Of a DNA stretch of 64,000 nucleotides, positions 2,706-64,000 are shown piece after piece. Position 1 is the first letter of the stretch. The number at the start of each line of letters is the position of its first letter. This stretch comes from Escherichia coli (lineage in GTDB: Bacteria > Pseudomonadota > Gammaproteobacteria > Enterobacterales > Enterobacteriaceae). The notes beneath the pieces were generated by a model. It did not search any database. It saw only the letters and a program-made list of their open reading frames with translations, and was not told the origin of the DNA. The translations under genes and the position numbers were made by a program. The stretch lies in the NCBI RefSeq assembly GCF_030384885.1, contig NZ_CP128613.1; one strand, written 5' to 3'.

Positions 2706-2709
2706 GTTC

Positions 2710-6145: not shown

Positions 6146-6416
6146 GTCACCATTTTGTCTGATTATCAGTTTACTAGCGAAAGCTAAGAAATAAACCTAC
6201 CATTGAAATTAAAACTTATCAGATTTAGCATGTGAATCAATTTAGCAGGTCACAAGACGTGTGATTTTAGTCTTTTCGTTTTTAACTTTTTTTGTTGCGT
6301 AACGGAAAGTCAAAAAGTGAGCAAATTCCCGTCTCGCCGTAAACAATAAACCGGCGAAATGCTCACGGTTAGAATTGTCTCATGAACGGTGCGGTTATTT
6401 CATAGGGATCAAGCAA

Positions 6417-6605: not shown

Positions 6606-6616
6606 GGGATTGGTGA

Positions 6617-7369: not shown

Positions 7370-9984
7370 GTATCCTGACCCGGTGGTTGCTTATCCCGCC
7401 GGTCAACGCGCGGCTTATCGGGCGTTATCGCGATTATCGTCGTCACGGCGCGTCGGCTTTCAGCGCGACGCTCGGCTGTTTTTGGTTGATCCTGGCCTGG
7501 ATTTTTATTCCGCTGGAGCACCCGCGCTGGCAGCGTATTCGCGCAGAACATAAAAACCTGTATCCGCATATCAACGCCTCGCGTCCGCGTCCGCTGGACC
7601 CGGTCCGTTATCTCATTCAAACATGCTGGTTACTGATCGGTACATCGCGCAAAGAAACGCCGAAACCGCGCAGGCGGACATTTTCAGGTCTGCAGAATAT
7701 TCGTGGACGTTACCATCAATGGATGAACGAGCTGCCTGAGCGCGTTAGCCATAAAACACAGCATCTCGATGAGAAAAAAGAACTCGGCCATTTGAGCGCC
7801 GGGGCGCGGCGGTTGATCCTCGGTATCATCGTCACCTTCTCGCTGATTCTGGCGTTAATCTGCGTTACCCAGCCGTTTAACCCGCTGGCGCAGTTTATCT
7901 TCCTGATGCTGCTGTGGGGTGTAGCGCTGATCGTACGGCGGATGCCGGGGCGCTTCTCGGCGCTAATGTTGATTGTGCTGTCGCTGACCGTTTCTTGCCG
8001 TTATATCTGGTGGCGCTACACCTCTACGCTGAACTGGGACGATCCGGTCAGTCTGGTGTGCGGGCTTATACTGCTGTTCGCTGAAACGTACGCGTGGATT
8101 GTGCTGGTGCTCGGCTACTTCCAGGTGGTATGGCCGCTGAATCGTCAGCCAGTACCGTTGCCGAAAGATATGTCGCTGTGGCCGTCGGTAGATATCTTTG
8201 TCCCGACTTACAACGAAGATCTCAACGTGGTGAAAAATACGATTTACGCCTCGCTGGGTATCGACTGGCCGAAAGACAAGCTGAACATCTGGATCCTCGA
8301 TGACGGCGGCAGGGAAGAGTTTCGCCAGTTTGCACAAAACGTGGGGGTGAAATATATCGCCCGTACCACTCATGAACATGCGAAAGCAGGCAACATCAAC
8401 AATGCGCTGAAATATGCCAAAGGCGAGTTCGTGTCGATTTTCGACTGCGACCACGTGCCGACGCGCTCATTCCTGCAAATGACCATGGGCTGGTTCCTGA
8501 AAGAAAAACAGTTGGCGATGATGCAGACGCCGCACCACTTCTTCTCACCGGATCCGTTTGAACGTAACTTGGGGCGTTTTCGTAAAACGCCAAACGAAGG
8601 CACGCTGTTTTATGGTCTGGTGCAGGACGGCAATGATATGTGGGATGCCACTTTCTTCTGCGGTTCCTGTGCGGTGATTCGTCGTAAGCCGCTGGATGAG
8701 ATTGGCGGCATTGCTGTCGAAACGGTAACCGAAGATGCGCATACTTCTCTGCGTTTGCACCGTCGTGGCTACACCTCTGCATATATGCGTATTCCGCAGG
8801 CGGCGGGGCTGGCGACCGAAAGTCTGTCGGCGCATATCGGTCAGCGTATTCGCTGGGCGCGCGGGATGGTGCAAATCTTCCGTCTCGATAACCCGCTCAC
8901 CGGTAAAGGGCTGAAGTTTGCTCAGCGGCTGTGCTACGTCAACGCCATGTTCCATTTCTTGTCGGGCATTCCACGACTGATCTTTCTGACTGCGCCGCTG
9001 GCGTTCCTGCTGCTGCATGCCTACATCATCTACGCGCCTGCGTTAATGATCGCTCTGTTTGTGCTGCCGCATATGATTCACGCCAGCCTGACCAACTCGA
9101 AGATTCAGGGTAAATATCGCCACTCTTTCTGGAGCGAAATCTACGAAACGGTACTGGCGTGGTATATCGCACCACCGACGCTGGTGGCGCTGATTAACCC
9201 GCACAAAGGCAAATTTAACGTCACCGCCAAAGGTGGACTGGTGGAAGAAGAGTACGTCGACTGGGTGATCTCACGGCCCTACATTTTCCTGGTATTGCTC
9301 AACCTGGTCGGTATTGCGGTCGGTATCTGGCGTTACTTCTACGGCCCGCCAACCGAGATGCTCACTGTCATCGTCAGTATGGTGTGGGTGTTCTACAACC
9401 TGATTATTCTCGGTGGTGCGGTAGCGGTATCGGTAGAAAGCAAACAGGTTCGCCGATCGCACCGCGTGGAGATGACGATGCCCGCGGCAATTGCCCGCGA
9501 AGATGGTCACCTCTTCTCGTGTACCGTTCAGGATTTCTCCGACGGTGGTTTGGGGATCAAGATCAACGGTCAGGCACAGATTCTGGAAGGGCAGAAAGTG
9601 AATCTGTTGCTTAAACGCGGTCAGCAAGAATACGTCTTCCCGGCCCAGGTGGCGCGCGTGATGGGTAATGAAGTTGGGCTGAAATTAATGCCGCTCACCA
9701 CCCAGCAACATATCGATTTTGTGCAGTGTACGTTTGCCCGTGCGGATACATGGGCGCTCTGGCAGGACAGCTATCCGGAAGATAAGCCGCTGGAAAGTCT
9801 GCTGGATATTCTGAAGCTCGGCTTCCGTGGCTACCGCCATCTGGCGGAGTTTGCGCCTTCTTCGGTGAAGGGCATATTCCGTGTGCTGACTTCTCTGGTT
9901 TCCTGGGTTGTATCGTTTATTCCGCGCCGCCCGGCGCGGAGCGAAACGGCACAACCATCGGATCAGGCTTTGGCTCAACAATGA
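7366..9984 (+). CDS. bcsA: Cellulose synthase catalytic subunit BcsA (872 aa, GT2 + PilZ)
   Basis: ATG at 7366 (MSILTRWLL...) overlapping bcsQ stop (ATGA); GT2 motifs (DDG, DCD, QTPH, QRIRW) and C-terminal PilZ. Confidence 0.95.
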   Translation: MSILTRWLLIPPVNARLIGRYRDYRRHGASAFSATLGCFWLILAWIFIPLEHPRWQRIRAEHKNLYPHINASRPRPLDPVRYLIQTCWLLIGTSRKETPKPRRRTFSGLQNIRGRYHQWMNELPERVSHKTQHLDEKKELGHLSAGARRLILGIIVTFSLILALICVTQPFNPLAQFIFLMLLWGVALIVRRMPGRFSALMLIVLSLTVSCRYIWWRYTSTLNWDDPVSLVCGLILLFAETYAWIVLVLGYFQVVWPLNRQPVPLPKDMSLWPSVDIFVPTYNEDLNVVKNTIYASLGIDWPKDKLNIWILDDGGREEFRQFAQNVGVKYIARTTHEHAKAGNINNALKYAKGEFVSIFDCDHVPTRSFLQMTMGWFLKEKQLAMMQTPHHFFSPDPFERNLGRFRKTPNEGTLFYGLVQDGNDMWDATFFCGSCAVIRRKPLDEIGGIAVETVTEDAHTSLRLHRRGYTSAYMRIPQAAGLATESLSAHIGQRIRWARGMVQIFRLDNPLTGKGLKFAQRLCYVNAMFHFLSGIPRLIFLTAPLAFLLLHAYIIYAPALMIALFVLPHMIHASLTNSKIQGKYRHSFWSEIYETVLAWYIAPPTLVALINPHKGKFNVTAKGGLVEEEYVDWVISRPYIFLVLLNLVGIAVGIWRYFYGPPTEMLTVIVSMVWVFYNLIILGGAVAVSVESKQVRRSHRVEMTMPAAIAREDGHLFSCTVQDFSDGGLGIKINGQAQILEGQKVNLLLKRGQQEYVFPAQVARVMGNEVGLKLMPLTTQQHIDFVQCTFARADTWALWQDSYPEDKPLESLLDILKLGFRGYRHLAEFAPSSVKGIFRVLTSLVSWVVSFIPRRPARSETAQPSDQALAQQ

Positions 9985-9994
9985 TGATAACGCG

Positions 9995-12334
9995 ATGAAA
10001 AGAAAACTATTCTGGATTTGTGCAGTGGCTATGGGGATGAGTGCGTTCCCCTCTTTCATGACGCAGGCGACGCCAGCAACGCAACCACTGATCAATGCTG
10101 AGCCAGCTGTAGCCGCCCAGACGGAACAAAATCCGCAGGTGGGGCAAGTGATGCCGGGCGTGCAGGGCGCTAATGCCCCCATCGTGGCGCAGAACGGTCC
10201 TTCGCGTGATGTGAAGCTGACCTTTGCGCAAATTGCGCCACCGCCGGGCAGCATGGTGCTACGTGGCATTAACCCGAACGGCAGCATTGAGTTTGGTATG
10301 CGCAGCGATGAAGTGGTGACGAAGGCGATGCTCAACCTCGAATACACGCCATCGCCATCGTTACTGCCTGTCCAGTCGCAGTTAAAGGTTTATCTCAATG
10401 ATGAACTGATGGGCGTGCTGCCAGTGACCAAAGAACAGTTGGGTAAAAAAACGCTGGCACAAATGCCAATTAACCCACTGTTTATTACCGACTTCAACCG
10501 TGTGCGGCTGGAGTTTGTCGGTCATTATCAGGACGTGTGCGAAAACCCGGCCAGCACCACGCTTTGGCTGGATGTTGGGCGGAGCAGTGGACTGGATCTG
10601 ACCTATCAGACCCTGAATGTGAAGAATGATCTGTCACACTTCCCGGTACCATTCTTTGACCCGCGTGATAACCGCACCAACACCTTGCCGATGGTCTTTG
10701 CGGGTGCGCCGGATGTTGGGCTGCAACAAGCATCTGCCATTGTCGCCTCGTGGTTTGGTTCGCGTTCTGGCTGGCGTGGGCAGAACTTCCCGGTGCTCTA
10801 TAACCAACTGCCGGATCGCAATGCCATCGTTTTTGCCACTAATGACAAACGCCCGGACTTCCTGCGCGATCATCCGGCGGTAAAAGCCCCGGTGATTGAG
10901 ATGATCAACCATCCACAGAATCCTTACGTCAAACTGCTGGTGGTCTTTGGTCGTGACGACAAAGACCTGTTGCAGGCAGCAAAAGGTATCGCTCAGGGTA
11001 ACATTCTGTTCCGTGGTGAAAGCGTGGTAGTGAATGAAGTAAAACCGCTGCTACCGCGTAAGCCGTACGATGCGCCGAACTGGGTGCGTACCGATCGCCC
11101 GGTCACCTTTGGTGAACTAAAAACCTATGAAGAACAGTTACAATCCAGCGGTCTTGAGCCAGCAGCGATTAACGTTTCGCTAAACCTGCCGCCGGATCTC
11201 TACCTGATGCGCAGTACCGGCATTGATATGGATATCAACTATCGCTACACCATGCCGCCGGTGAAAGACAGTTCGCGGATGGATATCAGCCTGAATAACC
11301 AGTTCCTGCAATCCTTCAACCTGAGCAGTAAACAGGAGGCGAACCGCCTGCTGCTGCGTATTCCGGTATTACAAGGTTTGCTGGATGGCAAAACGGATGT
11401 CTCTATTCCGGCGCTGAAACTGGGCGCGACCAACCAGTTGCGGTTCGACTTTGAGTATATGAACCCGATGCCGGGCGGTTCGGTGGATAACTGTATTACC
11501 TTCCAGCCGGTGCAGAATCATGTGGTGATTGGTGACGACTCCACCATCGACTTCTCGAAGTATTACCACTTCATCCCGATGCCGGATCTACGCGCCTTTG
11601 CTAACGCGGGCTTCCCGTTCAGCCGGATGGCGGATCTGTCACAAACCATCACCGTGATGCCGAAAGCGCCTAACGAAGCACAGATGGAAACCTTGCTGAA
11701 TACCGTTGGCTTTATCGGTGCGCAGACGGGCTTCCCGGCGATTAACCTGACGGTGACCGATGATGGCAGCACCATTCAGGGCAAAGATGCCGACATCATG
11801 ATCATCGGTGGTATCCCGGACAAACTGAAAGACGACAAGCAGATCGACCTGTTGGTGCAGGCGACCGAAAGCTGGGTGAAAACGCCGATGCGCCAGACCC
11901 CGTTCCCCGGCATTGTGCCGGACGAGAGCGATCGCGCGGCAGAAACTCAATCAACGCTGACCTCTTCCGGTGCGATGGCAGCGGTGATTGGCTTCCAGTC
12001 GCCGTATAACGACCAGCGTAGCGTGATTGCGCTGCTGGCAGATAGCCCACGCGGTTATGAAATGCTTAACGATGCGGTGAACGATAGCGGCAAACGCGCC
12101 ACCATGTTCGGCTCGGTCGCGGTGATCCGCGAGTCCGGTATCAATAGCCTGCGTGTTGGCGACGTCTATTACGTTGGCCATCTGCCGTGGTTCGAACGCT
12201 TATGGTATGCGCTGGCAAACCATCCGATTCTGCTGGCAGTGCTGGCGGCAATCAGCGTCGTGCTGCTGGCCTGGGTACTGTGGCGTTTGCTGCGTATTAT
12301 CAGCCGTCGTCGTCTTAACCCGGATAACGAGTAA
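9995..12334 (+). CDS. bcsB: Cellulose synthase periplasmic subunit BcsB (779 aa)
   Basis: ATG at 9995 (MKRKLFWICAVAMGMSA... signal peptide) within track ORF 9908..12334. Confidence 0.9.
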   Translation: MKRKLFWICAVAMGMSAFPSFMTQATPATQPLINAEPAVAAQTEQNPQVGQVMPGVQGANAPIVAQNGPSRDVKLTFAQIAPPPGSMVLRGINPNGSIEFGMRSDEVVTKAMLNLEYTPSPSLLPVQSQLKVYLNDELMGVLPVTKEQLGKKTLAQMPINPLFITDFNRVRLEFVGHYQDVCENPASTTLWLDVGRSSGLDLTYQTLNVKNDLSHFPVPFFDPRDNRTNTLPMVFAGAPDVGLQQASAIVASWFGSRSGWRGQNFPVLYNQLPDRNAIVFATNDKRPDFLRDHPAVKAPVIEMINHPQNPYVKLLVVFGRDDKDLLQAAKGIAQGNILFRGESVVVNEVKPLLPRKPYDAPNWVRTDRPVTFGELKTYEEQLQSSGLEPAAINVSLNLPPDLYLMRSTGIDMDINYRYTMPPVKDSSRMDISLNNQFLQSFNLSSKQEANRLLLRIPVLQGLLDGKTDVSIPALKLGATNQLRFDFEYMNPMPGGSVDNCITFQPVQNHVVIGDDSTIDFSKYYHFIPMPDLRAFANAGFPFSRMADLSQTITVMPKAPNEAQMETLLNTVGFIGAQTGFPAINLTVTDDGSTIQGKDADIMIIGGIPDKLKDDKQIDLLVQATESWVKTPMRQTPFPGIVPDESDRAAETQSTLTSSGAMAAVIGFQSPYNDQRSVIALLADSPRGYEMLNDAVNDSGKRATMFGSVAVIRESGINSLRVGDVYYVGHLPWFERLWYALANHPILLAVLAAISVVLLAWVLWRLLRIISRRRLNPDNE

Positions 12335-51345: not shown

Positions 51346-51678
51346 ATGAAAAAAGTATTAGGCGTTATTCTTGGTGGTCTGCTTCTTCTGCCAGTGGTGA
51401 GCAATGCAGCGGATGCACAAAAAGCAGCTGATAACAAAAAACCGGTCAACACCTGGACCTGTGAAGATTTTCTGGCTGTGGACGAATCCTTCCAGCCAAC
51501 TGCAGTTGGTTTTGCTGAAGCACTGAACAATAAAGATAAACCAGAAGATGCGGTTTTAGATGTTCAGGGTATTGCAACCGTAACCCCAGCGATCGTTCAG
51601 GCTTGTACTCAGGATAAACAAGCCAACTTTAAAGATAAAGTTAAAAGCGAATGGGACAAAGTTAAGAAAGATATGTAA
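51346..51678 (+). CDS. hdeA: Periplasmic acid stress chaperone HdeA (110 aa)
   Basis: ORF track; signal peptide; aggata RBS. Confidence 0.95.
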   Translation: MKKVLGVILGGLLLLPVVSNAADAQKAADNKKPVNTWTCEDFLAVDESFQPTAVGFAEALNNKDKPEDAVLDVQGIATVTPAIVQACTQDKQANFKDKVKSEWDKVKKDM

Positions 51679-51793
51679 TTCCGGGAATACGTTACATCGT
51701 ACTTCCTTGCATATTGAACAGGTAGGAATACCTTCTTCAAAAGCAGCTATTCCTTCTGTTCATATTTAATCTCTATATTGAATGGGTTACAAA

Positions 51794-52120
51794 ATGAATA
51801 TTTCATCTCTCCGTAAAGCGTTTATTTTTATGGGCGCTGTAGCGGCTTTGTCACTGGTGAACGCACAATCTGCGCTGGCAGCCAATGAATCCGCTAAAGA
51901 TATGACTTGCCAGGAATTTATTGATCTGAATCCAAAAGCAATGACACCGGTTGCGTGGTGGATGCTGCATGAAGAAACAGTTTATAAAGGTGGTGATACT
52001 GTTACTTTAAATGAAACCGATCTTACTCAAATTCCTAAAGTGATCGAATACTGCAAAAAAAATCCGCAGAAAAATTTGTATACTTTCAAAAATCAAGCAT
52101 CTAATGACTTGCCGAATTAA
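51794..52120 (+). CDS. hdeB: Periplasmic acid stress chaperone HdeB (108 aa)
   Basis: ATG at 51794 (MNISSLRKAFIFMGAVAALSLVNA...) within track ORF 51782..52120. Confidence 0.9.
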   Translation: MNISSLRKAFIFMGAVAALSLVNAQSALAANESAKDMTCQEFIDLNPKAMTPVAWWMLHEETVYKGGDTVTLNETDLTQIPKVIEYCKKNPQKNLYTFKNQASNDLPN

Positions 52121-52183
52121 TGGGGCACAAGTAAAAAGGAGTAGCAAGTTGAGCCATCTTGCTGCTCCTTTTTGCATTTTTAT

Positions 52184-52831
52184 ATGACAGCAGAATTTAT
52201 TATACGTCTTATACTCGCAGCAATTGCCTGTGGCGCTATTGGCATGGAAAGGCAAATGCGCGGCAAAGGAGCAGGGTTACGCACACATGTATTAATTGGC
52301 ATGGGAAGCGCCCTGTTTATGATTGTTTCGAAATATGGTTTTGCTGACGTGCTGTCTTTAGATCACGTCGGACTGGACCCCAGCCGTATTGCTGCTCAGG
52401 TGGTGACGGGCGTCGGGTTTATCGGTGCAGGTAACATTCTCGTTCGTAACCAAAATATTGTGGGTCTGACGACGGCAGCCGATATCTGGGTGACTGCGGC
52501 TATTGGTATGGTGATTGGCAGCGGTATGTATGAGCTGGGCATTTATGGTTCAGTAATGACCTTGCTGGTGCTGGAAGTCTTCCATCAATTAACCTTCCGC
52601 CTGATGAATAAAAATTACCATTTACAGCTGACATTAGTGAACGGTAATACGGTATCAATGCTCGACTGGTTTAAGCAGCAAAAAATAAAAACGGATTTAG
52701 TTTCGTTGCAGGAAAATGAAGATCATGAAGTGGTCGCCATTGATATCCAGCTTCATGCCACGACGTCGATAGAAGATCTGTTGCGATTATTAAAAGGTAT
52801 GGCAGGGGTGAAAGGCGTTTCAATTAGCTAA
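52184..52831 (+). CDS. yhiD: MgtC-family inner membrane protein YhiD (215 aa)
   Basis: ATG at 52184 (MTAEFIIRLILAAIACGAIGMERQ...) - MgtC/SapB signature. Confidence 0.9.
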   Translation: MTAEFIIRLILAAIACGAIGMERQMRGKGAGLRTHVLIGMGSALFMIVSKYGFADVLSLDHVGLDPSRIAAQVVTGVGFIGAGNILVRNQNIVGLTTAADIWVTAAIGMVIGSGMYELGIYGSVMTLLVLEVFHQLTFRLMNKNYHLQLTLVNGNTVSMLDWFKQQKIKTDLVSLQENEDHEVVAIDIQLHATTSIEDLLRLLKGMAGVKGVSIS

Positions 52832-52873
52832 TCTGTGTGGTAGCGAAATCACACTCGCCACCCTACTGGAAAT

Positions 52874-53404
52874 TCACACCAGATAATCAATATGCTGATG
52901 GCGTACCAACTCATTGATCCGCTTAAGATTGAGGATCATCATGATATTGTGTTTATGGCAGTAGAACGTTTTTAGCGATATTTTCAGTTTCTCCAGAATA
53001 TCTTCCGTTGTCATTTGATTCGCAATACAGCTTAGAACCTGATGCTGCTTGCGCGAAAGGGACACATCCGCTTCAGGCACAGAGCAGTAACTGCCATTGA
53101 TGAGTGCGACAAAGTCGATGATGGTGATAGTTCGCGGAACAAAGGTCACCGGTACTTTCCCCAGGCAGCGTTTAATATTAAAGGGAGAGAAAATAATCAC
53201 ATGGACAGGTTTTAATCGTTCAATCTGAGTGAGCAAATTAGAATGAAATACATTATTCATTAATGTATCAATAATGACGAAGGCATGCTGATGCAACATT
53301 ACGTCGATCTCTTCTTCGTTCTGTATATGAACGACATTACCTTTGCTCAGAATGTTTTTCATCGCAGTGAAGAACATCGTATCCCTGGTAATTATAAGAA
53401 ACAT
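52874..53404 (-). CDS. dctR: LuxR-family regulator DctR/YhiF (176 aa)
   Basis: ORF track; C-terminal LuxR HTH. Confidence 0.9.
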   Translation of the reverse strand: MFLIITRDTMFFTAMKNILSKGNVVHIQNEEEIDVMLHQHAFVIIDTLMNNVFHSNLLTQIERLKPVHVIIFSPFNIKRCLGKVPVTFVPRTITIIDFVALINGSYCSVPEADVSLSRKQHQVLSCIANQMTTEDILEKLKISLKTFYCHKHNIMMILNLKRINELVRHQHIDYLV

Positions 53405-53556
53405 AACCGACTCCTGGTGCGGACATTAACTTTATAATCAGTTTGCCAAAGGTAATTAACAGGACAGGGCTTATAATAATAGTTAGCTGGCTGTGTATTA
53501 ATTTGATGCAATGCATGATGCAGATGCTGAGAAAGCATCTGCATCTCTCGGTGGTG

Positions 53557-54123
53557 TTATTTGACCAGCTCAGGTGTTACTTGACTCACCGCATTGGTGT
53601 AGTAAGGCGCGCCCCAGCCCGGTTCCGGCCAGAATGCACCATAGCCGTAATCCCACAGGTTATAGGTGGTATTAACCACTTCTCTCAAATGCCACACCTG
53701 GATGCCCTGCATATTCACTTCCAGGAAGTTATACGGGACTTTATTGATAAAGCCAGGTTGTTCACCCTGAATGGTACCGAGGATGGTAACAAAGTGATTA
53801 CGATAGTTCACTGGATCAAGGAAGCCGCTTTGTCTGGCGAGCAGTCGGCCCTGATAGTTGGCTTCAATATCAGGCTTCGCATAGCTATCCAACGGTAATA
53901 CAGCGATTTCTAACAACGTATCCGTTTTGCCATTGATAACGTTGATAACCTTCCCGCCAAAGCGCGCTTGTTGACCAACATATAACCCCGGCTGGTTATG
54001 AACAGCAACAAAACTTTTTTGAATATCAGGTTGGTTATTGCCTTTGATATTTTGCGGAATTGAACTACATGCGGCAAGCAAAAATGAAAGGCTGAGGATG
54101 AGTGCACCTTTTGTCATGTTCAT
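53557..54123 (-). CDS. slp: Outer-membrane starvation lipoprotein Slp (188 aa)
   Basis: ATG at 54123 (MNMTKGALILSLSFLLAACSS lipobox) inside track ORF 53557..54342. Confidence 0.9.
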   Translation of the reverse strand: MNMTKGALILSLSFLLAACSSIPQNIKGNNQPDIQKSFVAVHNQPGLYVGQQARFGGKVINVINGKTDTLLEIAVLPLDSYAKPDIEANYQGRLLARQSGFLDPVNYRNHFVTILGTIQGEQPGFINKVPYNFLEVNMQGIQVWHLREVVNTTYNLWDYGYGAFWPEPGWGAPYYTNAVSQVTPELVK

Positions 54124-54368
54124 GTTACTATCCTTATCAACAAATATTAAAACCATAATAGATATTTCTTTATAGTTTTCATCTGATTCTGAGGCGATAT
54201 GCCTGATAGTAACGTAAACCTGTCTGATGTTTATATCCATTCTGTTTAGTTTAATTCTGTTAATTTTGGGGCGTGACATGAGTATCCATCGCCCCATAAA
54301 ATAGCCTTTTTTTAAAGGTACATAAAATCTATTTTTATTCAATGCTTATAAAGCGCTAATGTTCAATA

Positions 54369-55592
54369 TTATGGGATTATATTCTGGTAATGATTTGATA
54401 AGCGAATTCTTTTGCCAGTTGATATTTCTATTTCCACCCCATAATTTATAGTTTTTTCATCAGGTAGCGATCTCTTTAAATAAGGTGCGTATGACATTTT
54501 TTTAGGATGAAACGTATCGTGTTGAAATATTTCGAATTGATATTCAGACATTTGTGCCCATGTTTGAATTTTATTGTATCGGGAGAGTGTCGTAAAGGCT
54601 TTAACTTGCTTATAACATTGTTTTTGGAATTCTTGCTGATATTTTAATATGTCGTTGTATGAAAGATTGGTTATCCTGGCCTCTAAAAACTTAATTATCG
54701 TCGAAGCAACTTCAGCTTTTGCTCGTAAAAAGTTGTCATTAATGGTTAATAATGTTGAAAATAAACCTTCAATTTGTTTGTCAAGATATTGTTCATCTTT
54801 ATATAATTTATGGGTAGGGTGTTCCTTATGTGAAAAAATAGTGTCACATAAATTTGCGTCAGTGAAATTTATATTAAGTAGATCTTCGAAATAAAACCTT
54901 GACAAGGTTAGAACGAACCCGGACAGGTTCTGTCCTGTCATATTGAAATCAATAAAGTTGGTTCCGGCAAAGACTTTCATTCTGTTTTTATTTTCACTGT
55001 GCTCAATATATAACTTCGTCATTTTTTGATACAGGCTTTGAATATCTTTTATATTAGTTGGTAAGTCAGCTCGTTGTTCAGCAATAAAATTAGTATCTGA
55101 AAACATGGTTTGGACACTGAATGTTATGGGTATTCCCTCTTCTACGCTAATTTTAGTTATGATTGCCTTGTCGGGTTTAGGATTAGCGACAACAATGATT
55201 CGACATTCAGCACTTTTGTTCTTTTCGTATCTAATGTTATTAATCTGATTAAGTATTGATTGTGTCTGTTGCGTAAGTGGTGTCGAACTTATCGTTTCAA
55301 TGTTATTAATAAGTTTTACAAGTTGAGCCACAACTTTTGAGTAGTCTGCATTTGTATATGTGGTGTTCGTGTGGCACGCATTAATTTGTTGGAGTTGTTG
55401 TTGCGCTAAATCAAATTGTTCAGCGTTATATCCTTCTTCAGACAATGAAAAATTAATGGGTTGCTGTTCTTCCTGATTATCACAAGGCCACATCGGTGTG
55501 TTTGGTGTTTTAATATTGTCGGTATCTGTTGTGCGGTTATAAATATCGCCGTGATATGTATTTATCATACCTGGGGTAAAGTCAATTGACAT
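54369..55592 (-). CDS. yhiS: YhiS-like protein, intact (407 aa), pentapeptide-repeat-like central region
   Basis: ORF track; AT-rich; position between slp and ars region corresponds to yhiS, which in K-12 is split by IS5; no IS seen here. Confidence 0.7.
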
Positions 55593-56172
55593 AACATTCC
55601 TTATTGTTCATCTATTTCGCTAAATTTTTGCAAATCGGAGAATTAGAACAGGAATGGATTTTCTTCTACGCGGAAATAAACACAATGCGTCATATCTTCC
55701 TGATATAATTACCTTTAACTTCCCTTTCATTTCCACCCGGTAATATTTGTGTATAAAAAAAGGGCAGTGATAGTATCGTAAAGGAAAACATTAACAACTA
55801 TCAAAAAGCGCTCATTTTAAAAAGTTATGATGTTCTCCGATAGTGTGTGAAGTGATATTTTTGTGATGTTTTAGATGTGTAATAATGAACCAGGTTAAAG
55901 TGTATTTAAAAATGTGTTGTATTGGCGACTGAAATCTGCCCTTTAAAAGGGGGGATAGCACTGAGACAAAGAGGCATTGCTTCTCCGATAAAATGTCAGA
56001 GAAGCATGATTGCGTGGTGATTGTCGATTGATGACTTACTGACGGATCCGTCATCATTCTCAAAGCATTAGTTAAGTTATTTGTGATTTTTAAGGATTAT
56101 CCTATCTATGATTTTCTACTCAGAAGGATAAGGCACTCACAATGCTCCTTATAGTTTACTGCTGGCATCTAT

Positions 56173-57186
56173 TTAAAATAGCATTTGAGTCAAATAGCCC
56201 ATCAAGATAGCCATACCTAAGATAACCGTCAGGAATGCAACTATCATCGGTATTCTGAACATTGATTTAAGTAATATCACTTCCGTCAGACTTGCGCCGG
56301 CACTGCCGATGATTAATGCCATTAATGCTCCCAGACCCATTCCTTTTGTCATCAGAACAGATGCCAGAGGGATAACCGCCTCTGCCCGGATATACAGCGG
56401 GATTCCGACAACGGCGCTCAATGGGATGGCGAAGGGATTATCTGCCCCTGCATGAGCGGCAATCCACGCTGAGGGAATAAAGCCATAAATAAAAGAGCCT
56501 ATTAATACCCCTAACAAAAGATATGGCAGTACATCTTTAAACTGTTGCAACGCATCTTTGGTGGCTAGTTTTATGGGATTAATACTTACCACAGCTTTGG
56601 TACTGCAACAGTTTACTACCGGTTTCTCAATGGCTTTAGCCGCTGGACTACAGCAACTCACTTTTATTGGCGTATATGTCGTCCCCGGCGAAGTTTTGGC
56701 TGGAGAGCAACAATTTGCTGATGAGCTTTTACTGGCAATGATATGACGTTCAAATCTCAGAGAATCCAGGATAATACTGGCAAGTACGGAGACGCCGGCG
56801 GCGATAATCGCGTACAACAAGGTAACTTTCCAACCAAAGGTCACCCACATTAACCCGACGATAATGGGATTAAGTAACGGTGAAACAAATAAAAAAGTGA
56901 GAGTCGGACCAAACCCGGCTTTCGCTGACAACAATCCACGTAGCATGGGTATTGTCGAGCAACTACAGAACGGGGTAACGGCTCCCAACAGAGCAGCCAG
57001 GAGATAGCCTCTCCCTTTTCTGGCCCCCATCATCTGCTGGATTTTATGGTCTGGCACCTTTTGTCTTATCAGGCTGACACCGGCACTAATCACCATAAAC
57101 AGCAAAGAAAGCTCGACGGCGAGAAACACAAACATCTCTGCGGCATCTTGCAGCATCGCAAGCCAACTACTCATAAGTAACCTCAT
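56173..57186 (-). CDS. DUF318/ArsP-like permease with TPFCSCS motif and Cys-rich loop (337 aa)
   Basis: ORF track; multi-TM; motif GAVTPFCSCSTIPM; loop with three CC pairs; divergent from an ArsR-family regulator. Confidence 0.65.
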   Translation of the reverse strand: MRLLMSSWLAMLQDAAEMFVFLAVELSLLFMVISAGVSLIRQKVPDHKIQQMMGARKGRGYLLAALLGAVTPFCSCSTIPMLRGLLSAKAGFGPTLTFLFVSPLLNPIIVGLMWVTFGWKVTLLYAIIAAGVSVLASIILDSLRFERHIIASKSSSANCCSPAKTSPGTTYTPIKVSCCSPAAKAIEKPVVNCCSTKAVVSINPIKLATKDALQQFKDVLPYLLLGVLIGSFIYGFIPSAWIAAHAGADNPFAIPLSAVVGIPLYIRAEAVIPLASVLMTKGMGLGALMALIIGSAGASLTEVILLKSMFRIPMIVAFLTVILGMAILMGYLTQMLF

Positions 57187-57281
57187 TGAATAAAACTATA
57201 TTTCCAGAATAATCGAAATGAAGTTCAGATCAAGATATTTCTGGTATTATCGAAATATCAACCAGACAGAGGGGGTGACAC

Positions 57282-57602
57282 ATGCAATTGGAAGAGGTCG
57301 CTAAGGCACTGAAAGAGTTAGGTCATCCGACCCGTTTGTTCATATTTAAGCATCTGGTCAAAGCGGGGGAACAAGGGTTGCCGGTCGGTGAGTTGCAAAA
57401 GCAGCTTGGGATACCCGGCTCTACACTCAGTCACCATATTTCAGCACTGGTATCGGTAGGGTTGGTCAAACAAAACCGTGAGAGTCGGACGCTGATGTGT
57501 GTTTCGCAATACGCAATGCTGGAAGCGATAATTGAATTTTTATGTGAGGAGTGCTGCGTAAACAGCAAAACAGATGGCGAAGGAGCCACGAAGAACAAAT
57601 AA
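57282..57602 (+). CDS. ArsR/SmtB-family metalloregulatory transcriptional repressor (106 aa)
   Basis: HTH signature (LGHPTRLFIFKHL...VGELQKQLGIPGSTLSHHISAL) and C-terminal CEECC cysteine cluster. Confidence 0.7.
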   Translation: MQLEEVAKALKELGHPTRLFIFKHLVKAGEQGLPVGELQKQLGIPGSTLSHHISALVSVGLVKQNRESRTLMCVSQYAMLEAIIEFLCEECCVNSKTDGEGATKNK

Positions 57603-57622
57603 GGGGGCATATCCCCCTATAG

Positions 57623-58048
57623 TTATTTCAGGCGTTTACCCGCTTCATCAACCACTTTTTCGCCATCTTCCTTGGTGAACGCGCCTTGTTGCGCATCTGG
57701 CAGAATTTCCAGCACCACTTCTGAAGGGCGGCACAGGCGAGTTCCTAGCGGCGTCACCACAATCGGGCGATTAATCAGAATCGGGTGCTGAAGCATAAAG
57801 TCGATTAACCGATCGTCAGTAAATTTATCTTCTGCAAGGCCCAGTTCCTCATACGGCTCGACGTTTTTACGCAACAGCGCGCGTACGGAAATCCCCATAT
57901 CGGCAATGAGTTTGACCAGCTCATCGCGCGTTGGCGGTGTTTCCAGATAATAGATAATGGTCGGTTCTGTACCGCTGTTGCGGATCATCTCCAGCGTATT
58001 ACGCGACGTGCCGCAGGCCGGGTTGTGATAAATAGTAATGTTGCTCAT
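57623..58048 (-). CDS. arsC: Arsenate reductase ArsC (141 aa)
   Basis: ORF track; MSNITIYHNPACGTSRNTLEMIR - glutaredoxin-coupled ArsC catalytic Cys motif. Confidence 0.95.
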   Translation of the reverse strand: MSNITIYHNPACGTSRNTLEMIRNSGTEPTIIYYLETPPTRDELVKLIADMGISVRALLRKNVEPYEELGLAEDKFTDDRLIDFMLQHPILINRPIVVTPLGTRLCRPSEVVLEILPDAQQGAFTKEDGEKVVDEAGKRLK

Positions 58049-58060
58049 ATCAGTATCTCA

Positions 58061-59350
58061 TTACGATGTGAAAGAGAGACGAAGCGCCAGCGCGGTAAGC
58101 GTCACAAACAGCACCGGCAGGGTCATGATAATCCCTGTACGGAAGTAATATCCCCAGCTGATAGTCATATTCTTCTGCGAAAGTACGTGCAGCCAGAGCA
58201 GCGTTGCCAGGCTACCAATCGGTGTAATTTTCGGCCCCAAATCGCAGCCAATCACGTTGGCATAAACCATCGCTTCTTTGATGACACCAGATGCCGTGCT
58301 GCCATCAATGGACAACGCGCCAACCAGTACCGTCGGCATATTGTTCATAATAGAAGAGAGGAAGGCGGTGAGGAATCCGGTGCCGAGCGTCGCCGCCCAC
58401 AGGCCGTGATCCGCCAGCACGTTGAGTACGCCAGAAAGATATTCCGTTAGTCCGGCATTGCGCAGGCCGTAAACCACCAGATACATGCCGAGCGAGAAGA
58501 TGACAATCTGCCAGGGGGCACCGCGCAGCACTTTACCCGTATTAATCGCATGGCCGCGTTTAGCGACGGCAAATAATATCAGCGCGCCTACTGCCGCAAT
58601 GGCGCTTACCGGAATGCCGAGCGGTTCCAGGACGAAAAATCCCACCAGCAGAAGCAGTAAAACAACCCAGCCAGTTTTGAAGGTGGCAGGATCTTTAACC
58701 GCTTCTACGGGAGATTTAAGCAGCGCCATGTCGTAGTTCTGCGGAATATCTTTGCGGAAATAGAGATGCAACATCACCAGGGTAGCCAGTATTGCAGCGA
58801 TATCCACCGGCACCATCACCGAGGCATATTCGCGAAAACCAAGGCCAAAGAAATCTGCTGAAACGATATTCACCAGGTTAGAGACAATAAGCGGCAGACT
58901 GGCGGTATCGGCAATGAATCCGGCCGCCATAACAAACGCCAGCGTAGTGCCTTTGCTGAACCCTAAAGCCAGCAGCATGGCGATGACAATCGGCGTCAAA
59001 ATAAGCGCCGCACCATCATTGGCAAACAGGGCAGCAACGGTAGCACCGAGCAGGACAATCCAGGTAAACAGCAAGCGACCGCGCCCATTGCCCCAGCGTG
59101 AGACGTGCAGTGCCGCCCATTCAAAAAAGCCGGACTCATCCAGCAGCAGGCTGATGATAATGACGGCAATAAACGCAGCCGTCGCGTTCCAGACGATATT
59201 CCACACCACCGGAATATCGCCCGGATGGACCACGCCAGTAACTAACGCCAGTACGGCGCCCAGTGTCGCACTCCAGCCGATGCCTAAACCTTTCGGCTGC
59301 CAGATAACCAATACGATGGTCAGGACAAAGATAGCGCCCGCCAGTAACAT
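58061..59350 (-). CDS. arsB: Arsenite efflux pump ArsB (429 aa)
   Basis: ATG ([11 protein letters not shown]...) inside track ORF 58061..59371. Confidence 0.9.
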
Positions 59351-59404
59351 CATGCCTCCTGGATAAAACACATTCGAATATTCATATGTGTTTAGATAAA
59401 TTTT

Positions 59405-59758
59405 TTAACTACAAATATTCTTACTGTCTGCGGAACAATTTTGTCTGACGAGGTTACGGACAATCACCTGAACCTTTTCCTGTTCGCATCGCCAGGCCTG
59501 CTCAATAATTTTCGCCGCCCATGCTGGAATATGCGGCGATAAGCGATAATGAACCCACTTACCCTGCTTGCGGTCCAGCAATAGCCCACTTTCACGCAGT
59601 AATGCCAGATGGCGGGAGATCTTGGGCTGCGACTGATCGAGGGCAGTGCAGAGATCGCAGACGCATAACTCTCCCAGTTCGCTGAGCAGTAAAACGATGC
59701 CCAGACGGGTTTCATCGGCAAGAATTTTGAACAATTGGATGGGTAACAGAAATGACAT
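59405..59758 (-). CDS. arsR: Arsenical resistance operon repressor ArsR (117 aa)
   Basis: ORF track; ELCVCDLC metal-binding motif plus HTH. Confidence 0.95.
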   Translation of the reverse strand: MSFLLPIQLFKILADETRLGIVLLLSELGELCVCDLCTALDQSQPKISRHLALLRESGLLLDRKQGKWVHYRLSPHIPAWAAKIIEQAWRCEQEKVQVIVRNLVRQNCSADSKNICS

Positions 59759-59911
59759 ATTGCGCTCCTGATTGTTGCAGGTAGTGTCTCTCTTCGAAGC
59801 GGATAAGTCAAAAACATATATGTTTTAACGAATGTGTAAGTGCAGAGGAAGGTAATAGGTGTGAATTAAGCGTTGGGTGTTCATTTGAAAGGAAGTCTGA
59901 ATCAGGATGTA

Positions 59912-60005
59912 AAAAAACCGACTTTGCGTCGGTTTTTTACTCTTCAGCCAGAGTTGGTGGCTCTGGCTGGAGTGAGAATGCCCACATCTAACGGTTCAAT
60001 ACTAT
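59912..60005 (-). ncRNA. agrB: AgrB-like sRNA (antisense regulator of dinQ); ends approximate
   Basis: Repeat unit 'ggctctggctggagtgaga-tgcccacatctaac' whose minus-strand transcript is complementary to the dinQ leader copy at ~60395-60430; ends in hairpin ccgac-gcaaa-gtcgg plus T-run. Confidence 0.45.
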
Positions 60006-60147
60006 TAGCCAGTGGCTAACATTGCAAGCGTTAGCGATTTCTTCAGCTGGCGAAGGGACAGTTTGCTATACATGGTGGTGAAAGAGGATTGATATACTTT
60101 CATCGGGTCGCTGCCGTACCAAGCCTTGTCCGAATCCGGACGTAAAA

Positions 60148-60240
60148 AAACCGACTTCGCGTCGGTTTTTTTACTCTTCAGCCCAGAATTGGTGGCTCTG
60201 GCTGGAGTGAGATAGCCATCATCTAACACATCAATGCTAA
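60148..60240 (-). ncRNA. agrA: AgrA-like sRNA (antisense regulator of dinQ); ends approximate
   Basis: Second copy of the repeat plus the same terminator hairpin. Confidence 0.45.
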
Positions 60241-60291
60241 TACCATACTGAAACTATTGCAAGGACGTGCTGGTTTTATAACCCGCAAGTA

Positions 60292-60307
60292 CTGTATAAT
60301 TATCCAG
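60292..60307 (+). promoter_or_regulatory. LexA (SOS) box overlapping a TATAAT -10 element, upstream of dinQ
   Basis: CTGTATAATTATCCAG matches CTGT-N8-ACAG with one mismatch; TATAAT at 60295-60300. Confidence 0.6.
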
Positions 60308-60500
60308 TTAGCTCTGAGGCATTTTCACTCTGGTAATGCGCATAAACGCTTTCAAAGTCCTGGTCAGAAGTACGGGTGGTGCCGTTAACTGATGCTCTGG
60401 CCGGAGTGAGATTGCCCACATCTAACAATGAGGCATGCGCCGTGACAGGCAGTGGATGAGTAAGCGGATGCATTCTCACTCCATCGCATGGAGAAAACGG

Positions 60501-60584
60501 GTGATTGATAAAGCAATCATCGTTCTTGGGGCGTTAATTGCGCTGATGGAACTGATCCGCTTCCTGCTTCAGCTTCTGAACTGA
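60501..60584 (+). CDS. dinQ: SOS-induced type I toxin peptide DinQ (27 aa, GTG start)
   Basis: GTG-initiated ORF VIDKAIIVLGALIALMELIRFLLQLLN, hydrophobic single helix; followed by terminator hairpin. Confidence 0.7.
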   Translation: MIDKAIIVLGALIALMELIRFLLQLLN

Positions 60585-60601
60585 TAGCGGAAACGTAACT
60601 A

Positions 60602-60637
60602 AGGGCAAAGAGCACACCACTCTTTGCCCTTTAACAT
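60602..60637. terminator. Bidirectional terminator between dinQ and gor
   Basis: gggcaaagag-cacaccac-tctttgccc hairpin followed by T-rich tract. Confidence 0.55.
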
Positions 60638-61990
60638 TTAACGCATGGTAACGAACTCTTCTGCCGCCGTTGGGTGAATGGCGACGGTATTGTCGAAGTC
60701 TTTTTTGGTTGCGCCCATCTTCAGCGCCACTGCGAAGCCCTGCAACATTTCATCCATACCAAAGCCAATGCCGTGAATACCGACAATCTTCTCTTCCGGT
60801 CCAACGCACACCAGTTTCATGCGGCACGGCTGGCGGTGCGTGGTGACGGCGGTATACATCGCGGTGAAAGAGGATTTATACACTTTCACCTGATCGTCGC
60901 CGTATTGCTCGCGCGCCTGCGGTTCCGTTAAACCAACAGTCCCAATCGGCGGATGGCTGAAGACCACGGTCGGAATATTGCTGTAATCCAGATGCTCATC
61001 CGGCTTGTTATTAAACAGGCGTTCAGAGAGGCGGCGGCCTGCTGCAACTGCCACCGGTGTCAGTTCCACTGCGCCCGTGTTATCGCCCACCGCGTAAATA
61101 CCTTCAACGCTGGTATTTTGATATTTATCGACGACGATATAGCCTTTTTCGTTGGTTTTTACGCCAGCGGCTTCGAGGTTAATGTTGTCATTGGCAGGCT
61201 CACGACCAATCGCCCAAATCAGGCAATCCACCGTTTCACTGCGACCATCTTCCAGCTCCAGCGTCAGGCTGCCATCAGCATTTTTCACGACCGCTTTCGG
61301 GATGGCGTTGGTGTGCAACTGCGGACCTTCGGCGTTCATCACTTCGACCAGCGTTTCAGAGATCATCGGGTCGAAGCTGCGCAGCGGCGCATGTTTACGA
61401 ACAAACAGATGCGTCTTTGCGCCGAGGCCGTTAATCACACCCGCCAGTTCAACGGCGATGTAACCCGCGCCAACAACCGCTACACGCTCTGGCAAAGCAG
61501 GAAGGGCGAAGAAGCCATCGGAATCAATACCGTATTCCACGCCCGGAATATCCGGGTGGCTCGGGCGACCGCCGGTGGCGATCAGGATATGATCGGCCGT
61601 GATGGTTTCGCCGTTTACTTCAATGGTTTTGGCATCAACGAAGCGGGCAAAGCCTTTGATTACATCAACGTTATTTTTACCGAGCACGTTTTCATAGGAG
61701 GTATGAATACGGTCGATATAGGCGGTACGGCTGGCGATCAACGTTTCCCAGTTGAACTTATTGATGGTGGTATCGAAACCATAATCCGGGCCGTACATGT
61801 GGATCGCTTCACGGATTTGCGCCGCGTGCCACATCACTTTTTTCGGCACGCAGCCAACATTCACGCAGGTGCCGCCCAGTTCTTTGGCTTCAATCAGCGC
61901 GCATTTCTGACCGTACATAGCCGCGCGGTTGATGGAGGCGATACCGCCGCTGCCGCCGCCGATGGCGATGTAATCATAGTGTTTAGTCAT
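60638..61990 (-). CDS. gor: Glutathione reductase Gor (450 aa)
   Basis: ORF track; FAD/NAD-binding GxGxxG motifs and redox-active CVNVGC. Confidence 0.95.
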
Positions 61991-62061
61991 GACATATTGT
62001 CCTTATCGTTGATTACCGCGATTGTAGCGCGAGACGTAATAGGTGCCAGCAATGGCTGCAA

Positions 62062-62904
62062 TTACTCTGGCACGATCCAGCTTACGGTGGCATGTCCGGT
62101 GCCAGCCGGAACCAGTTTGCTATGCAACCACGGCAACACGTTATTCATCTGCTGTTCCAGCTTCCACGGCGGGTTAATCACAATCATGCCGGAAGCGGTC
62201 ATGCCACGGCGATCGCTGTCTGGCAATACTGCCAGTTCAATTTGCATAATCTTGCGAATACCGGTCGCTTCCAGATCGTGGATCATGCGCTTGATTTGCT
62301 GACGCAGCACCACTGGATACCACAGCGCGTAGACGCCTGTGGCAAAACGTTTATACCCCTCGTTAATGCCGCTGACCACCGCCTGATAGTCGGTTTTCAT
62401 TTCATACGGCGGGTCGATAAGGATTAAACCACGGCGAGAAACCGGCGGCAGCTTGGCTTTAAGCTGCTGGAAACCGTCGGCTTTTTCCACGCGCGCACGG
62501 CTGTCTTTCTGAAATTCAGAGCGCAGCAACGGGTAATCGCTCGGGTGCAGCTCGGTCAGTTGTAGACTGTCCTGCTCGCGCAGTAGCTGGCGAGCAATCA
62601 ACGGCGAACCTGGGTAGTAACGTAACTGCCCGCTACGGTTAAAATGTTCCACCACGCTGATGTACGGTTCCAGCTCCGCAGGCAGATCGTCCTGCTGCCA
62701 GATACGGGCGATACCTTCGAGATATTCGCCGGTACGCTCGGCATGTTCACTGCCTAACTGATAACGCCCCGCACCCGCGTGGGTATCCAGATAGAGAAAC
62801 GGTTTATCTTTCTCTTTCAGTGACTCGATGATCAGGCTCTGAACGGTATGTTTAAGGACGTCGGCGTGGTTGCCAGCGTGAAAGCTGTGGCGATAACTGA
62901 GCAT
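62062..62904 (-). CDS. rlmJ: 23S rRNA m6A2030 methyltransferase RlmJ/YhiR (280 aa)
   Basis: ATG at 62904 (MLSYRHSFHAGNHADVLKH...) inside track ORF 62062..62955. Confidence 0.85.
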   Translation of the reverse strand: MLSYRHSFHAGNHADVLKHTVQSLIIESLKEKDKPFLYLDTHAGAGRYQLGSEHAERTGEYLEGIARIWQQDDLPAELEPYISVVEHFNRSGQLRYYPGSPLIARQLLREQDSLQLTELHPSDYPLLRSEFQKDSRARVEKADGFQQLKAKLPPVSRRGLILIDPPYEMKTDYQAVVSGINEGYKRFATGVYALWYPVVLRQQIKRMIHDLEATGIRKIMQIELAVLPDSDRRGMTASGMIVINPPWKLEQQMNNVLPWLHSKLVPAGTGHATVSWIVPE

Positions 62905-63106
62905 GGGTAAAGGTGTTCCGGTAAGTAAAAATCGGCCCGTATTCGGGGCGCACAAAAGCCTATCAGGACAGTATACCGAAAAGAGGCCGTCGCCGCGAAA
63001 GCGTAACGTTTCTCATTGAAATTCACTACACTTAACCCCATGCTACACACATTATGTAAAGCGCCTGTTGAGCGCTTCCTTAACCTCTTTAACCAGGACT
63101 GCGCTA

Positions 63107-64000
63107 ATGACGAATCCGTTACTGACTCCCTTTGAATTGCCTCCGTTTTCTAAAATTCTCCCGGAACATGTGGTTCCAGCCGTGACGAAGGCATTGAATG
63201 ACTGCCGCGAAAATGTGGAGCGCGTAGTAGCGCAAGGGGCACCGTACACCTGGGAAAATCTCTGCCAGCCGCTGGCGGAAGTGGACGATGTGTTGGGGCG
63301 TATCTTCTCCCCGGTCAGCCACCTGAACTCGGTGAAAAATAGCCCGGAACTGCGTGAAGCCTACGAACAAACCCTGCCACTGCTGTCGGAATACAGCACC
63401 TGGGTAGGGCAACATGAAGGGCTGTATAAAGCGTACCGCGATCTGCGCGATGGCGATCATTACGCCACGCTGAATACGGCGCAGAAGAAAGCGGTTGATA
63501 ACGCCCTGCGTGATTTTGAACTCTCTGGCATCGGTCTGCCGAAAGAGAAACAGCAACGCTACGGCGAAATTGCTACCCGTCTTTCCGAGCTGGGCAACCA
63601 GTACAGCAACAACGTCCTTGATGCGACGATGGGCTGGACCAAACTCGTTACCGACGAAGCGGAACTGGCGGGTATGCCAGAAAGCGCGCTGGCGGCGGCA
63701 AAAGCCCAGGCCGAAGCGAAAGAACTGGAAGGCTACTTGCTGACGCTGGATATCCCAAGCTATTTGCCGGTAATGACCTACTGCGACAACCAGGCCTTGC
63801 GTGAAGAGATGTATCGCGCTTACAGCACCCGCGCTTCCGATCAAGGCCCGAACGCCGGTAAGTGGGACAATAGCAAGGTGATGGAAGAGATCCTCGCTCT
63901 GCGTCACGAACTGGCGCAACTGCTGGGCTTTGAAAACTACGCCTTTAAATCTCTGGCTACCAAAATGGCGGAGAACCCGCAGCAGGTGCTTGATTTCTTA
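63107..64000 (+). CDS. prlC: Oligopeptidase A PrlC, N-terminal fragment (3' end outside window)
   Basis: ATG at 63107 (MTNPLLTPFELPPFSKI...) open to window end; divergent from rlmJ as expected. Confidence 0.85.
   Translation, partial: MTNPLLTPFELPPFSKILPEHVVPAVTKALNDCRENVERVVAQGAPYTWENLCQPLAEVDDVLGRIFSPVSHLNSVKNSPELREAYEQTLPLLSEYSTWVGQHEGLYKAYRDLRDGDHYATLNTAQKKAVDNALRDFELSGIGLPKEKQQRYGEIATRLSELGNQYSNNVLDATMGWTKLVTDEAELAGMPESALAAAKAQAEAKELEGYLLTLDIPSYLPVMTYCDNQALREEMYRAYSTRASDQGPNAGKWDNSKVMEEILALRHELAQLLGFENYAFKSLATKMAENPQQVLDFL

Follow-up and report, generated by a model that had tools for sequence, protein, structure and literature searches.

Gene organization of the locus

The 64-kb stretch of Escherichia coli DNA analysed here (contig NZ_CP128613.1; hereafter the window) matches the E. 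coli 2013C-4282 chromosome at 100% identity and carries, between yhiS (54369-55592) and arsC, two open reading frames (ORFs) encoding a regulator of the ArsR/SmtB family and a divergently transcribed permease of the ArsP type. This gene pair, which we regard as a probable resistance module for trivalent organoarsenicals, is labelled in the RefSeq annotation of 2013C-4282 as 'ArsR/SmtB family transcription factor' (WP_001175588) and 'permease' (WP_032304001, 333 aa). Coordinates of the pair and its surroundings are collected in Table 1.

The original prediction described a 337-aa permease and a 106-aa regulator separated by a 95-bp divergent intergenic region. Both ORFs and their divergent layout stand, with the longest permease ORF spanning 56173-57186 on the minus strand and encoding 337 aa. 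The true permease start is, however, probably the ATG at 57174, giving 333 aa, since a GAGG Shine-Dalgarno sequence lies 7 nt upstream, the N-termini of homologues read MNSWL or MSSWL, and RefSeq makes the same choice. With this start, the intergenic region measures 107 bp instead of 95 bp.

Relationship to SpArsR/arsP of Shewanella putrefaciens

In S. putrefaciens 200, the repressor SpArsR (Sput200_1227) regulates the promoter of the adjacent arsP gene (Sput200_1226) (PMC12124457). Two further reports describe an SpArsR site that keeps only the vicinal pair Cys101/102 and responds to methylarsenite, MAs(III), and not to arsenite, As(III) (PMC11868830, PMC13236881). The SpArsR sequence was rebuilt from the supplement of PMC12124457, read across frames, yielding a protein of 105 aa whose Cys83, Cys101 and Cys102 agree with the published numbering. 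The rebuilt sequence has an exact match in Shewanella genomes, where it is encoded divergently from an ArsP_1 gene 222 bp away within a large arsenic island.

The regulator of the window and SpArsR align without gaps over 92 residues at 58% identity (E 2e-40), which places Cys73, Cys91 and Cys92 on Cys83, Cys101 and Cys102. The permease is 52% identical to the SpArsR-linked ArsP (E 3e-113), both proteins possessing a similar Cys-Cys-rich loop, and only 30% identical to a second, thioredoxin-linked ArsP_1 of the Shewanella island. By sequence comparison, the E. coli pair and SpArsR/arsP are related at the level of orthologs. The two systems have in common the divergent layout, boxes of the form ATTTC-N10-GAAAT and other adjacent ars genes. 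They differ in the intergenic region, which measures 107 bp with two boxes in E. coli and 222 bp with three boxes in Shewanella, and in their neighbours: the E. coli pair adjoins arsRBC with a glutaredoxin-type arsC, whereas the Shewanella pair is accompanied by an arsC of the low-molecular-weight protein tyrosine phosphatase type, a second ArsR, the second ArsP_1 with its thioredoxin-like gene, GAPDH-arsJ and arr genes. Relative to SpArsR, the E. coli allele in the window also has an extra cysteine, Cys88.

The second ArsP_1 type, ~30% identical to the permease and without the Cys-rich loop, is found in both Salmonella (1-1159) and Shewanella (9264-10510), with a small Thioredoxin_3 gene always following it. 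In Shewanella, a canonical ArsR precedes it, and it looks like a separate ArsP subtype with its own partner protein.

The permease and its conserved thiol pair

The permease matches the Pfam family ArsP_1 (PF03773) over its full length (E 1.1e-52), with query residues 14-334 aligned to positions 4-293 of the 294-position model. Its earlier identification as ArsP/DUF318, which rested on the motif TPFCSCS, is borne out by this match together with the presence of the C-S-C pair. The motif occupies residues 71-77, and its association with ArsP is backed by Yang et al. 2015, who defined ArsP homologues by a universal transmembrane C(S/T)C preceded by 'LAV' in cluster 1 and by 'tPF' in cluster 2 (PMC4435449). 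The TPF-CSC of the permease fits cluster 2. TPFCSCS is kept in 81 of 81 homologues, partly by construction, 'TPFCS' being in the search pattern, and in most homologues the C-S-C pair provides the only cysteines outside the central loop.

A confident AlphaFold model built from 87 sequences (predicted local distance difference test, pLDDT, 87.3; predicted template modelling score, pTM, 0.83) predicts two similar halves. TPFCSCS is located at a helix break in the first half (residues 67-70 in the 333-aa numbering) and GIPLYIRAE at the counterpart break in the second half, where homologues show little or no variation at G257, P259, L260, Y261 and R263 (333-aa numbering). No solved structure matches the permease by sequence, and a Foldseek search with the model returned nothing significant. 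The predicted model nevertheless resembles solved structures of elevator carriers of the ion-transporter superfamily (ArsB, DASS/INDY and Pho90); this is a resemblance and not membership, the identity being 8-11% and the carriers measuring 428-541 aa against 333 aa for the permease.

The central loop contains six Cys, nine Lys or Arg and three Asp or Glu in 69 residues. Across homologues, it varies in length from 32 to 105 aa and in Cys count from 0 to 10. The loop is probably cytoplasmic, since its nine Lys and Arg against three Asp and Glu follow the positive-inside rule.

ArsP of Campylobacter jejuni is the prototype efflux permease for methylarsenite and trivalent roxarsone, and no other ArsP is known to have direct transport data. 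In C. jejuni, the gene order is arsP-arsR-arsC-acr3, under a canonical ArsR. Unlike the E. coli pair, C. jejuni arsP is not part of a divergent pair with its own SpArsR-type repressor, while its product and the permease have the Pfam family name ArsP_1 and the C(S/T)C pair in common (PMC4435449). Published reports place C. jejuni arsP in one ars operon with acr3 (PMC6205960, PMC4435449) and describe export of MAs(III) and trivalent roxarsone, Rox(III), and not of As(III) (PMC6205960).

Two other branches of PF03773, which have the Pfam family and a TPFCSCS-type core in common with the permease, were considered as assignments and rejected: SO_0444 Cu/Zn efflux (NF033936), at 108.7 bits against a curated cutoff of 300, and SaoE (NF040736), at 83.4 bits against a curated cutoff of 325. 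That these are the best NCBIfam matches of the permease raises an alternative in which it exports another thiophilic metal (Cu, Zn, Cd or Hg) or an organometal in the manner of SO_0444 or SaoE, with the regulator as a metal sensor. Cys-rich loops are typical for soft-metal binding, and most loci of the family have no ars neighbours. We consider metal export very unlikely, since both scores fall far under their cutoffs, the regulator is orthologous to an arsenical sensor and has the same Cys positions and operator, and the recurrent functional neighbours, where present, are ars genes only.

The regulator and its cysteines

The regulator is a winged helix-turn-helix protein of the ArsR/SmtB family, matching HTH_20 (E 2.9e-14) and HTH_5 and scoring 61.2 bits on NF033788 (ArsR/SmtB metalloregulator; cutoff 55). 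Canonical E. coli/R773 ArsR, which has the type 1 site Cys32-Cys34-Cys37, belongs to the same family, and a copy is encoded 1.8 kb away in the locus. The identity between the two is 29% over 62 residues, and where canonical ArsR has CVCDLC, the regulator reads GLPVGELQ, without any Cys. The locus thus carries two ArsR-type regulators, as first proposed, and they are of two distinct types.

The best Protein Data Bank match of the regulator is AfArsR of Acidithiobacillus ferrooxidans (6j05, E 2.6e-10), which has a type 2 site. The Cys95-Cys96 pair of AfArsR falls exactly on Cys91-Cys92, where the last helix reaches its C-terminal end. According to PMC11868830 and PMC13236881, AfArsR binds As(III) through Cys95, Cys96 and Cys102. 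AfArsR senses inorganic As(III) with a third ligand, Cys102, whereas the regulator has no Cys after the pair and lacks an equivalent. Among 68 regulators, Cys91 is present in 90%, Cys92 in 94% and Cys73 in 85%, and a third, AfArsR-like Cys lies four to five residues past the pair in 17.

The C-terminal CEECC cluster noted in the original prediction is present as Cys88, Cys91 and Cys92; as a cluster it is not conserved, Cys88, three residues before the conserved pair, being specific to this allele. Residue 88 is Arg in E. fergusonii, Salmonella, Citrobacter and Aeromonas, and plasmid copies read LREECC or LQEECC. Within E. coli, the major allele LREECC (Arg88) is found on at least 1000 contigs and the LCEECC allele of the window (Cys88) on 538 contigs.

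Cys88 bears on a second alternative, in which the module detects inorganic As(III) or Sb(III) and pumps it out, duplicating or backing up ArsR and ArsB, and Cys88, Cys91 and Cys92 form a three-sulfur site in this allele. Cys88 lies three to four residues before the pair on the same predicted helix, a spacing comparable to the C-x-C-x-x-C of R773 ArsR. The 17 regulators with a Cys102-like third Cys imply that the family includes probable As(III) sensors, and the arsD-arsA genes that directly precede the permease in Endozoicomonas hint at a role in As(III) handling. Neither the major E. coli allele nor any other genus has Cys88, however, which means that the function of the module cannot be set by it. 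The permease has only two conserved membrane thiols, ArsB is already present at the locus, and C. jejuni ArsP reportedly does not extrude inorganic arsenite (PMC6205960). We therefore regard this alternative as unlikely. A narrower idea, which we put forward as speculative though somewhat less improbable, is that Arg88Cys may create a three-Cys site in a sensor also answering inorganic As(III) or Sb(III), that the Cys-Cys loop of the permease may act as an ArsD-like capture domain, or both.

A further alternative treats the regulator as a sensor of redox state, sulfur species or electrophiles, a thiol switch of the BigR/YgaV/HlyU kind, and the permease as an exporter of a non-metal compound. 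Weak matches to BigR (38.6 bits, NCBIfam) and to YgaV and BigR structures, together with the occurrence of the module mostly alone in marine bacteria, are compatible with it. The BigR score is far under the cutoff of 155. In BigR-type sensors, the Cys pair is spread over two helices, unlike the conserved vicinal pair of the regulator at the AfArsR/SpArsR position. Moreover, SpArsR, a direct homologue, responds to MAs(III) (PMC12124457), and a thiol switch is highly improbable here.

Operator boxes in the divergent intergenic region

Two near-palindromic boxes, A and B, are positioned between the two genes, and they are the only occurrences of ATTTC-N10-GAAAT in the 64 kb, where 0.16 are expected. 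The boxes are near-invariant from E. coli to Aeromonas (five genera), while the spacer between them diverges. All 45 divergent regulator-permease loci of other species have at least one box, 42 have at least two, and a region holds 2.42 boxes on average, compared with 0.09 in control segments of equal length. Across the family, the boxes give the consensus ATTTCGATAnTnCTAGAAAT. Box B and its two flanking bases agree in 21 of 22 positions with one box of the arsP promoter of S. putrefaciens, and the fragment carrying that promoter is repressed by SpArsR and induced by MAs(III) (PMC12124457).

Table 1. Positions of the gene pair, its predicted functional elements and flanking features in the window
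Feature	Position	Strand	Remarks
Non-coding tail of the variable segment	55935-56172		Downstream of the permease stop; missing in K-12-type genomes (homology with MLI023K2 lost at ~55935)
Permease, arsP-type coding sequence	56173-57174	-	333 aa from ATG 57174, stop codon counted; Pfam ArsP_1
GIPLYIRAE codons	56380-56406	-	Helix break of the second permease half, equivalent to that at TPFCSCS; predicted by the model at residues 261-263
Central loop codons, residues 145-213	56548-56754	-	Cys-Cys pairs NCCSP, SCCSP and NCCST; predicted disordered, pLDDT ~50
TPFCSCS codons, residues 71-77	56956-56976	-	Cys74/Cys76 thiol pair; at a helix break in the predicted model
Candidate sigma-70 promoter of the regulator	57186-57213	+	TTGAAT, 16 nt, AATAAT; consensus scan; overlaps box A
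Operator box A, ATTTCCAGAATAATCGAAAT	57200-57219		Overlaps the candidate regulator promoter
Candidate sigma-70 promoter of the permease	57232-57261	-	TTGATA, 18 nt, TATCTT; consensus scan; overlaps box B
Operator box B, ATTTCTGGTATTATCGAAAT	57237-57256		Overlaps the candidate permease promoter
Regulator, SpArsR-type ArsR/SmtB repressor coding sequence	57282-57602	+	106 aa; HTH_20/HTH_5, NF033788 and SpArsR matches
Cys73 codon	57498-57500	+	Aligns with SpArsR Cys83
Cys88 codon	57543-57545	+	Allele-specific third Cys; Cys in 1 of 68 regulators
Cys91-Cys92 codons	57552-57557	+	Predicted arsenical-binding vicinal pair; on SpArsR Cys101/102 and AfArsR Cys95/96
GC-rich hairpin, AGGGGGCATATCCCCCT	57602-57618		Flanked by the stop codons of the regulator and arsC, which converge; resembles a terminator on either strand
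Canonical operon arsR-arsB-arsC	57623-59758	-	arsC 57623-58048, arsB 58061-59350, arsR 59405-59758

Distribution, neighbours and plasmid carriage

The segment (at least 80% of it) is present in 2222 of 5426 complete E. coli genomes (~41%). A pattern scan of one genome per species recovered 80 loci, mostly in marine Gammaproteobacteria and at 36-66% identity. Clustering of the ORFs within 5 kb placed the regulator at 67 of the 80 loci, within 300 bp of the permease at 57 and divergent from it at 45. The pair is an autonomous module.

Genes of the ars type lie beside the pair in E. fergusonii, Salmonella, Citrobacter, Shewanella, Endozoicomonas and Pseudoalteromonas. In E. fergusonii, the pair follows arsC at a distance of 20 bp, at the same junction as in the window. 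The Salmonella pair is located after arsRDABC plus arsH in a Tn3/IS66 island, and in Citrobacter arsRDABC followed by the pair (3230-9092 for the whole) forms cargo of a lambdoid prophage, between DnaT/lambda P replication genes and DinI/RusA. Pseudoalteromonas has arsH 1.3 kb from the pair, and Aeromonas carries the pair without companions. In two Endozoicomonas loci (1173-4709 and 7448-10999), arsD and arsA come right before the permease, which in the second is followed by the regulator; the layout hints at a possible partnership between an ArsP-type permease and the ArsA ATPase. A general argument from association with ars genes was tried and rejected, as it failed outside these few lineages.

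One E. fergusonii assembly, GCA_020034915.1 (5783-7127), has an intact pair and no called arsB; tblastn gives two overlapping pieces, which suggests that arsB is frameshifted there.

Homologues are found on ~1000 plasmid records, of which 629 are at 60-80% identity and 639 are on plasmids predicted to be conjugative. The plasmid versions of the pair are 74-79% identical, and inspected examples comprise IncHI2 (Salmonella, chicken), IncY (E. coli) and IncC (Yersinia ruckeri, pYR1), the last with two copies of the pair. Resistance genes adjoin the pair on two of the three plasmids: aph(3')-IIa and mph(A) on IncHI2, and dfrI on IncC.

Selection and history of the segment

Both genes are under purifying selection. 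The ratio of nonsynonymous to synonymous substitution rates (dN/dS) of the regulator is 0.013 against E. fergusonii and 0.033 against Salmonella, with an overall range of 0.013-0.05, and that of the permease is 0.20 and 0.07, respectively. Values of 0.013-0.20 imply that the genes are functional. They bear on the notion that the pair is a non-functional remnant in E. coli, to which the absence of the pair from 59% of complete genomes (among them K-12, O157 EDL933 and Nissle 1917) and the insertion sequences (IS) in some copies might point. With both ORFs intact and constrained to this degree, an operator invariant across genera and a wide spread on conjugative plasmids, we find this notion scarcely credible.

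K-12 MG1655 lacks the pair, as originally stated: its arsC is followed by 628 bp and then by an IS5-split yhiS, and the K-12-like MLI023K2 is alike. In MLI023K2, ~290 bp of unrelated sequence resembling repetitive extragenic palindromic (REP) elements replaces window positions ~55935-57621, homology resuming at the hairpin after the regulator stop. At ~4320-4600, this genome has a palindromic element of the REP/bacterial interspersed mosaic element type at the junction and a remnant resembling the GGGGGCATATCCCCC hairpin of the window.

The original prediction spoke of genes inserted between yhiS and arsC. An insertion is not established; the segment is a presence/absence polymorphism, and 'inserted' may really mean retained here and lost in K-12. 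The synonymous divergence (dS) of the pair, 0.22-0.30 at the species level, exceeds that of arsR/arsB/arsC (0.13-0.16) and gor (0.10), which favours long residence over recent insertion. An ancestral state cannot be read from the presence of the pair at the same junction in E. fergusonii; this argument was rejected because the arsC-prlC flank is 97-100% identical between the window and the E. fergusonii contig, the mark of recent exchange. Window positions 56172-64000 are 96.7% identical to E. fergusonii GCA_024331405.1 over 7.8 kb, a figure that rises to 99.8-100% in most of 61757-64000 (rlmJ/prlC), whereas the same flank is only 94-95% identical to K-12-like E. coli. This pattern suggests recent recombination of the flank between E. 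coli and E. fergusonii, or a mislabelled assembly.

Against MLI023K2, the whole acid-fitness-island/ars region of the window (51625-62097) is unusually divergent and mosaic for two E. coli strains, with 90-99.5% identity in 400-bp steps and a gor dS of 0.19. With a 2.5-kb query, only 14 records match at 99% or more.

Among the flanking genes, arsR, arsB and arsC all have NCBIfam matches above cutoff, in agreement with the RefSeq annotation. The yhiS-like ORF is intact in the window (407 aa) and has no NCBIfam match; RefSeq flags its counterpart in 2013C-4282 as frameshifted, and the K-12 copy is the one split by IS5. In the arsR-dinQ interval, each of two ~115-bp segments (59895-60007 and 60128-60242) matches the counterpart of the other at 85-87% identity, and they correspond to the region of the small-RNA repeats annotated in K-12 as agrA/agrB.

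Proposed function

We propose, with fair assurance, that the pair works as an independent unit, repressing itself and conferring resistance to trivalent organoarsenicals, and that it is orthologous to SpArsR/arsP. This reading draws on homology, conserved residues, operator conservation, synteny and purifying selection, and it supports the original prediction of an expanded metalloid-resistance locus possibly reaching methylarsenite or aromatic arsenicals. The system is unnamed and of a known kind, and it involves no new mechanism. The scheme that follows goes further by inference as regards the ligand, the direction of transport and its energy source, and the parts played by the central loop and Cys88.

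The regulator, presumably as a dimer, would bind the two 20-bp near-palindromic ATTTC-N10-GAAAT boxes that lie over the divergent promoters, keeping both genes off. Methylarsenite, and probably aromatic trivalent arsenicals too, would bind Cys91-Cys92, where the dimerisation helix ends towards the C-terminus; two sulfur ligands are enough for an R-As(III) species, and its binding would free the repressor from DNA. The permease, with a predicted fold resembling elevator-type carriers of the ion-transporter superfamily including ArsB, would then export the organoarsenical, the Cys74-Ser-Cys76 at the membrane helix break serving as a putative two-thiol substrate site. Capture of substrate from the cytoplasm may fall to the central loop, rich in Lys/Arg and in Cys-Cys pairs. 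Alongside arsRBC, which covers arsenite, antimonite and arsenate, the module would widen resistance to methylated and aromatic As(III) species.

Several observations weigh against an organoarsenical module. The genomic tie of the pair to arsenic is sporadic, given the few ars neighbours across the 80 species and the solitary plasmid copies: unbiased ORF clustering found no neighbour family other than the regulator at more than 9 of the 80 loci, homologues of arsB, arsC, arsD, arsA or arsH were not detected within 10 kb in most of the 80 species, and on the IncHI2, IncY and IncC examples the pair stands alone between IS26, IS1, Tn3 or ISL3 elements. The candidate promoters come from consensus matching alone, and such matches are no more frequent here than in shuffled sequences. 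Support for transport by the 'tPF' cluster-2 type comes from regulation and context, and the extra Cys88 might alter ligand selectivity.

Biological implications

The genes are carried by roughly two-fifths of complete E. coli genomes, yet their RefSeq names are generic only. Were the proposed function to hold, the conserved operator and regulator would constitute an enteric-native part for methylarsenite biosensors, and organoarsenical feed additives could co-select multidrug-resistance plasmids. A Cys88 site or a capturing loop, if real, would represent natural evolution of ligand range in a metalloid sensor or pump. An organoarsenical module would further mean that E. coli strains differ in a trait relevant to 'arsenic warfare' in gut and soil, and that K-12, the usual test host, is atypical, since this strain has no copy of the pair and is reportedly sensitive to MAs(III) (bioRxiv 10.1101/2023.01.09.523296).

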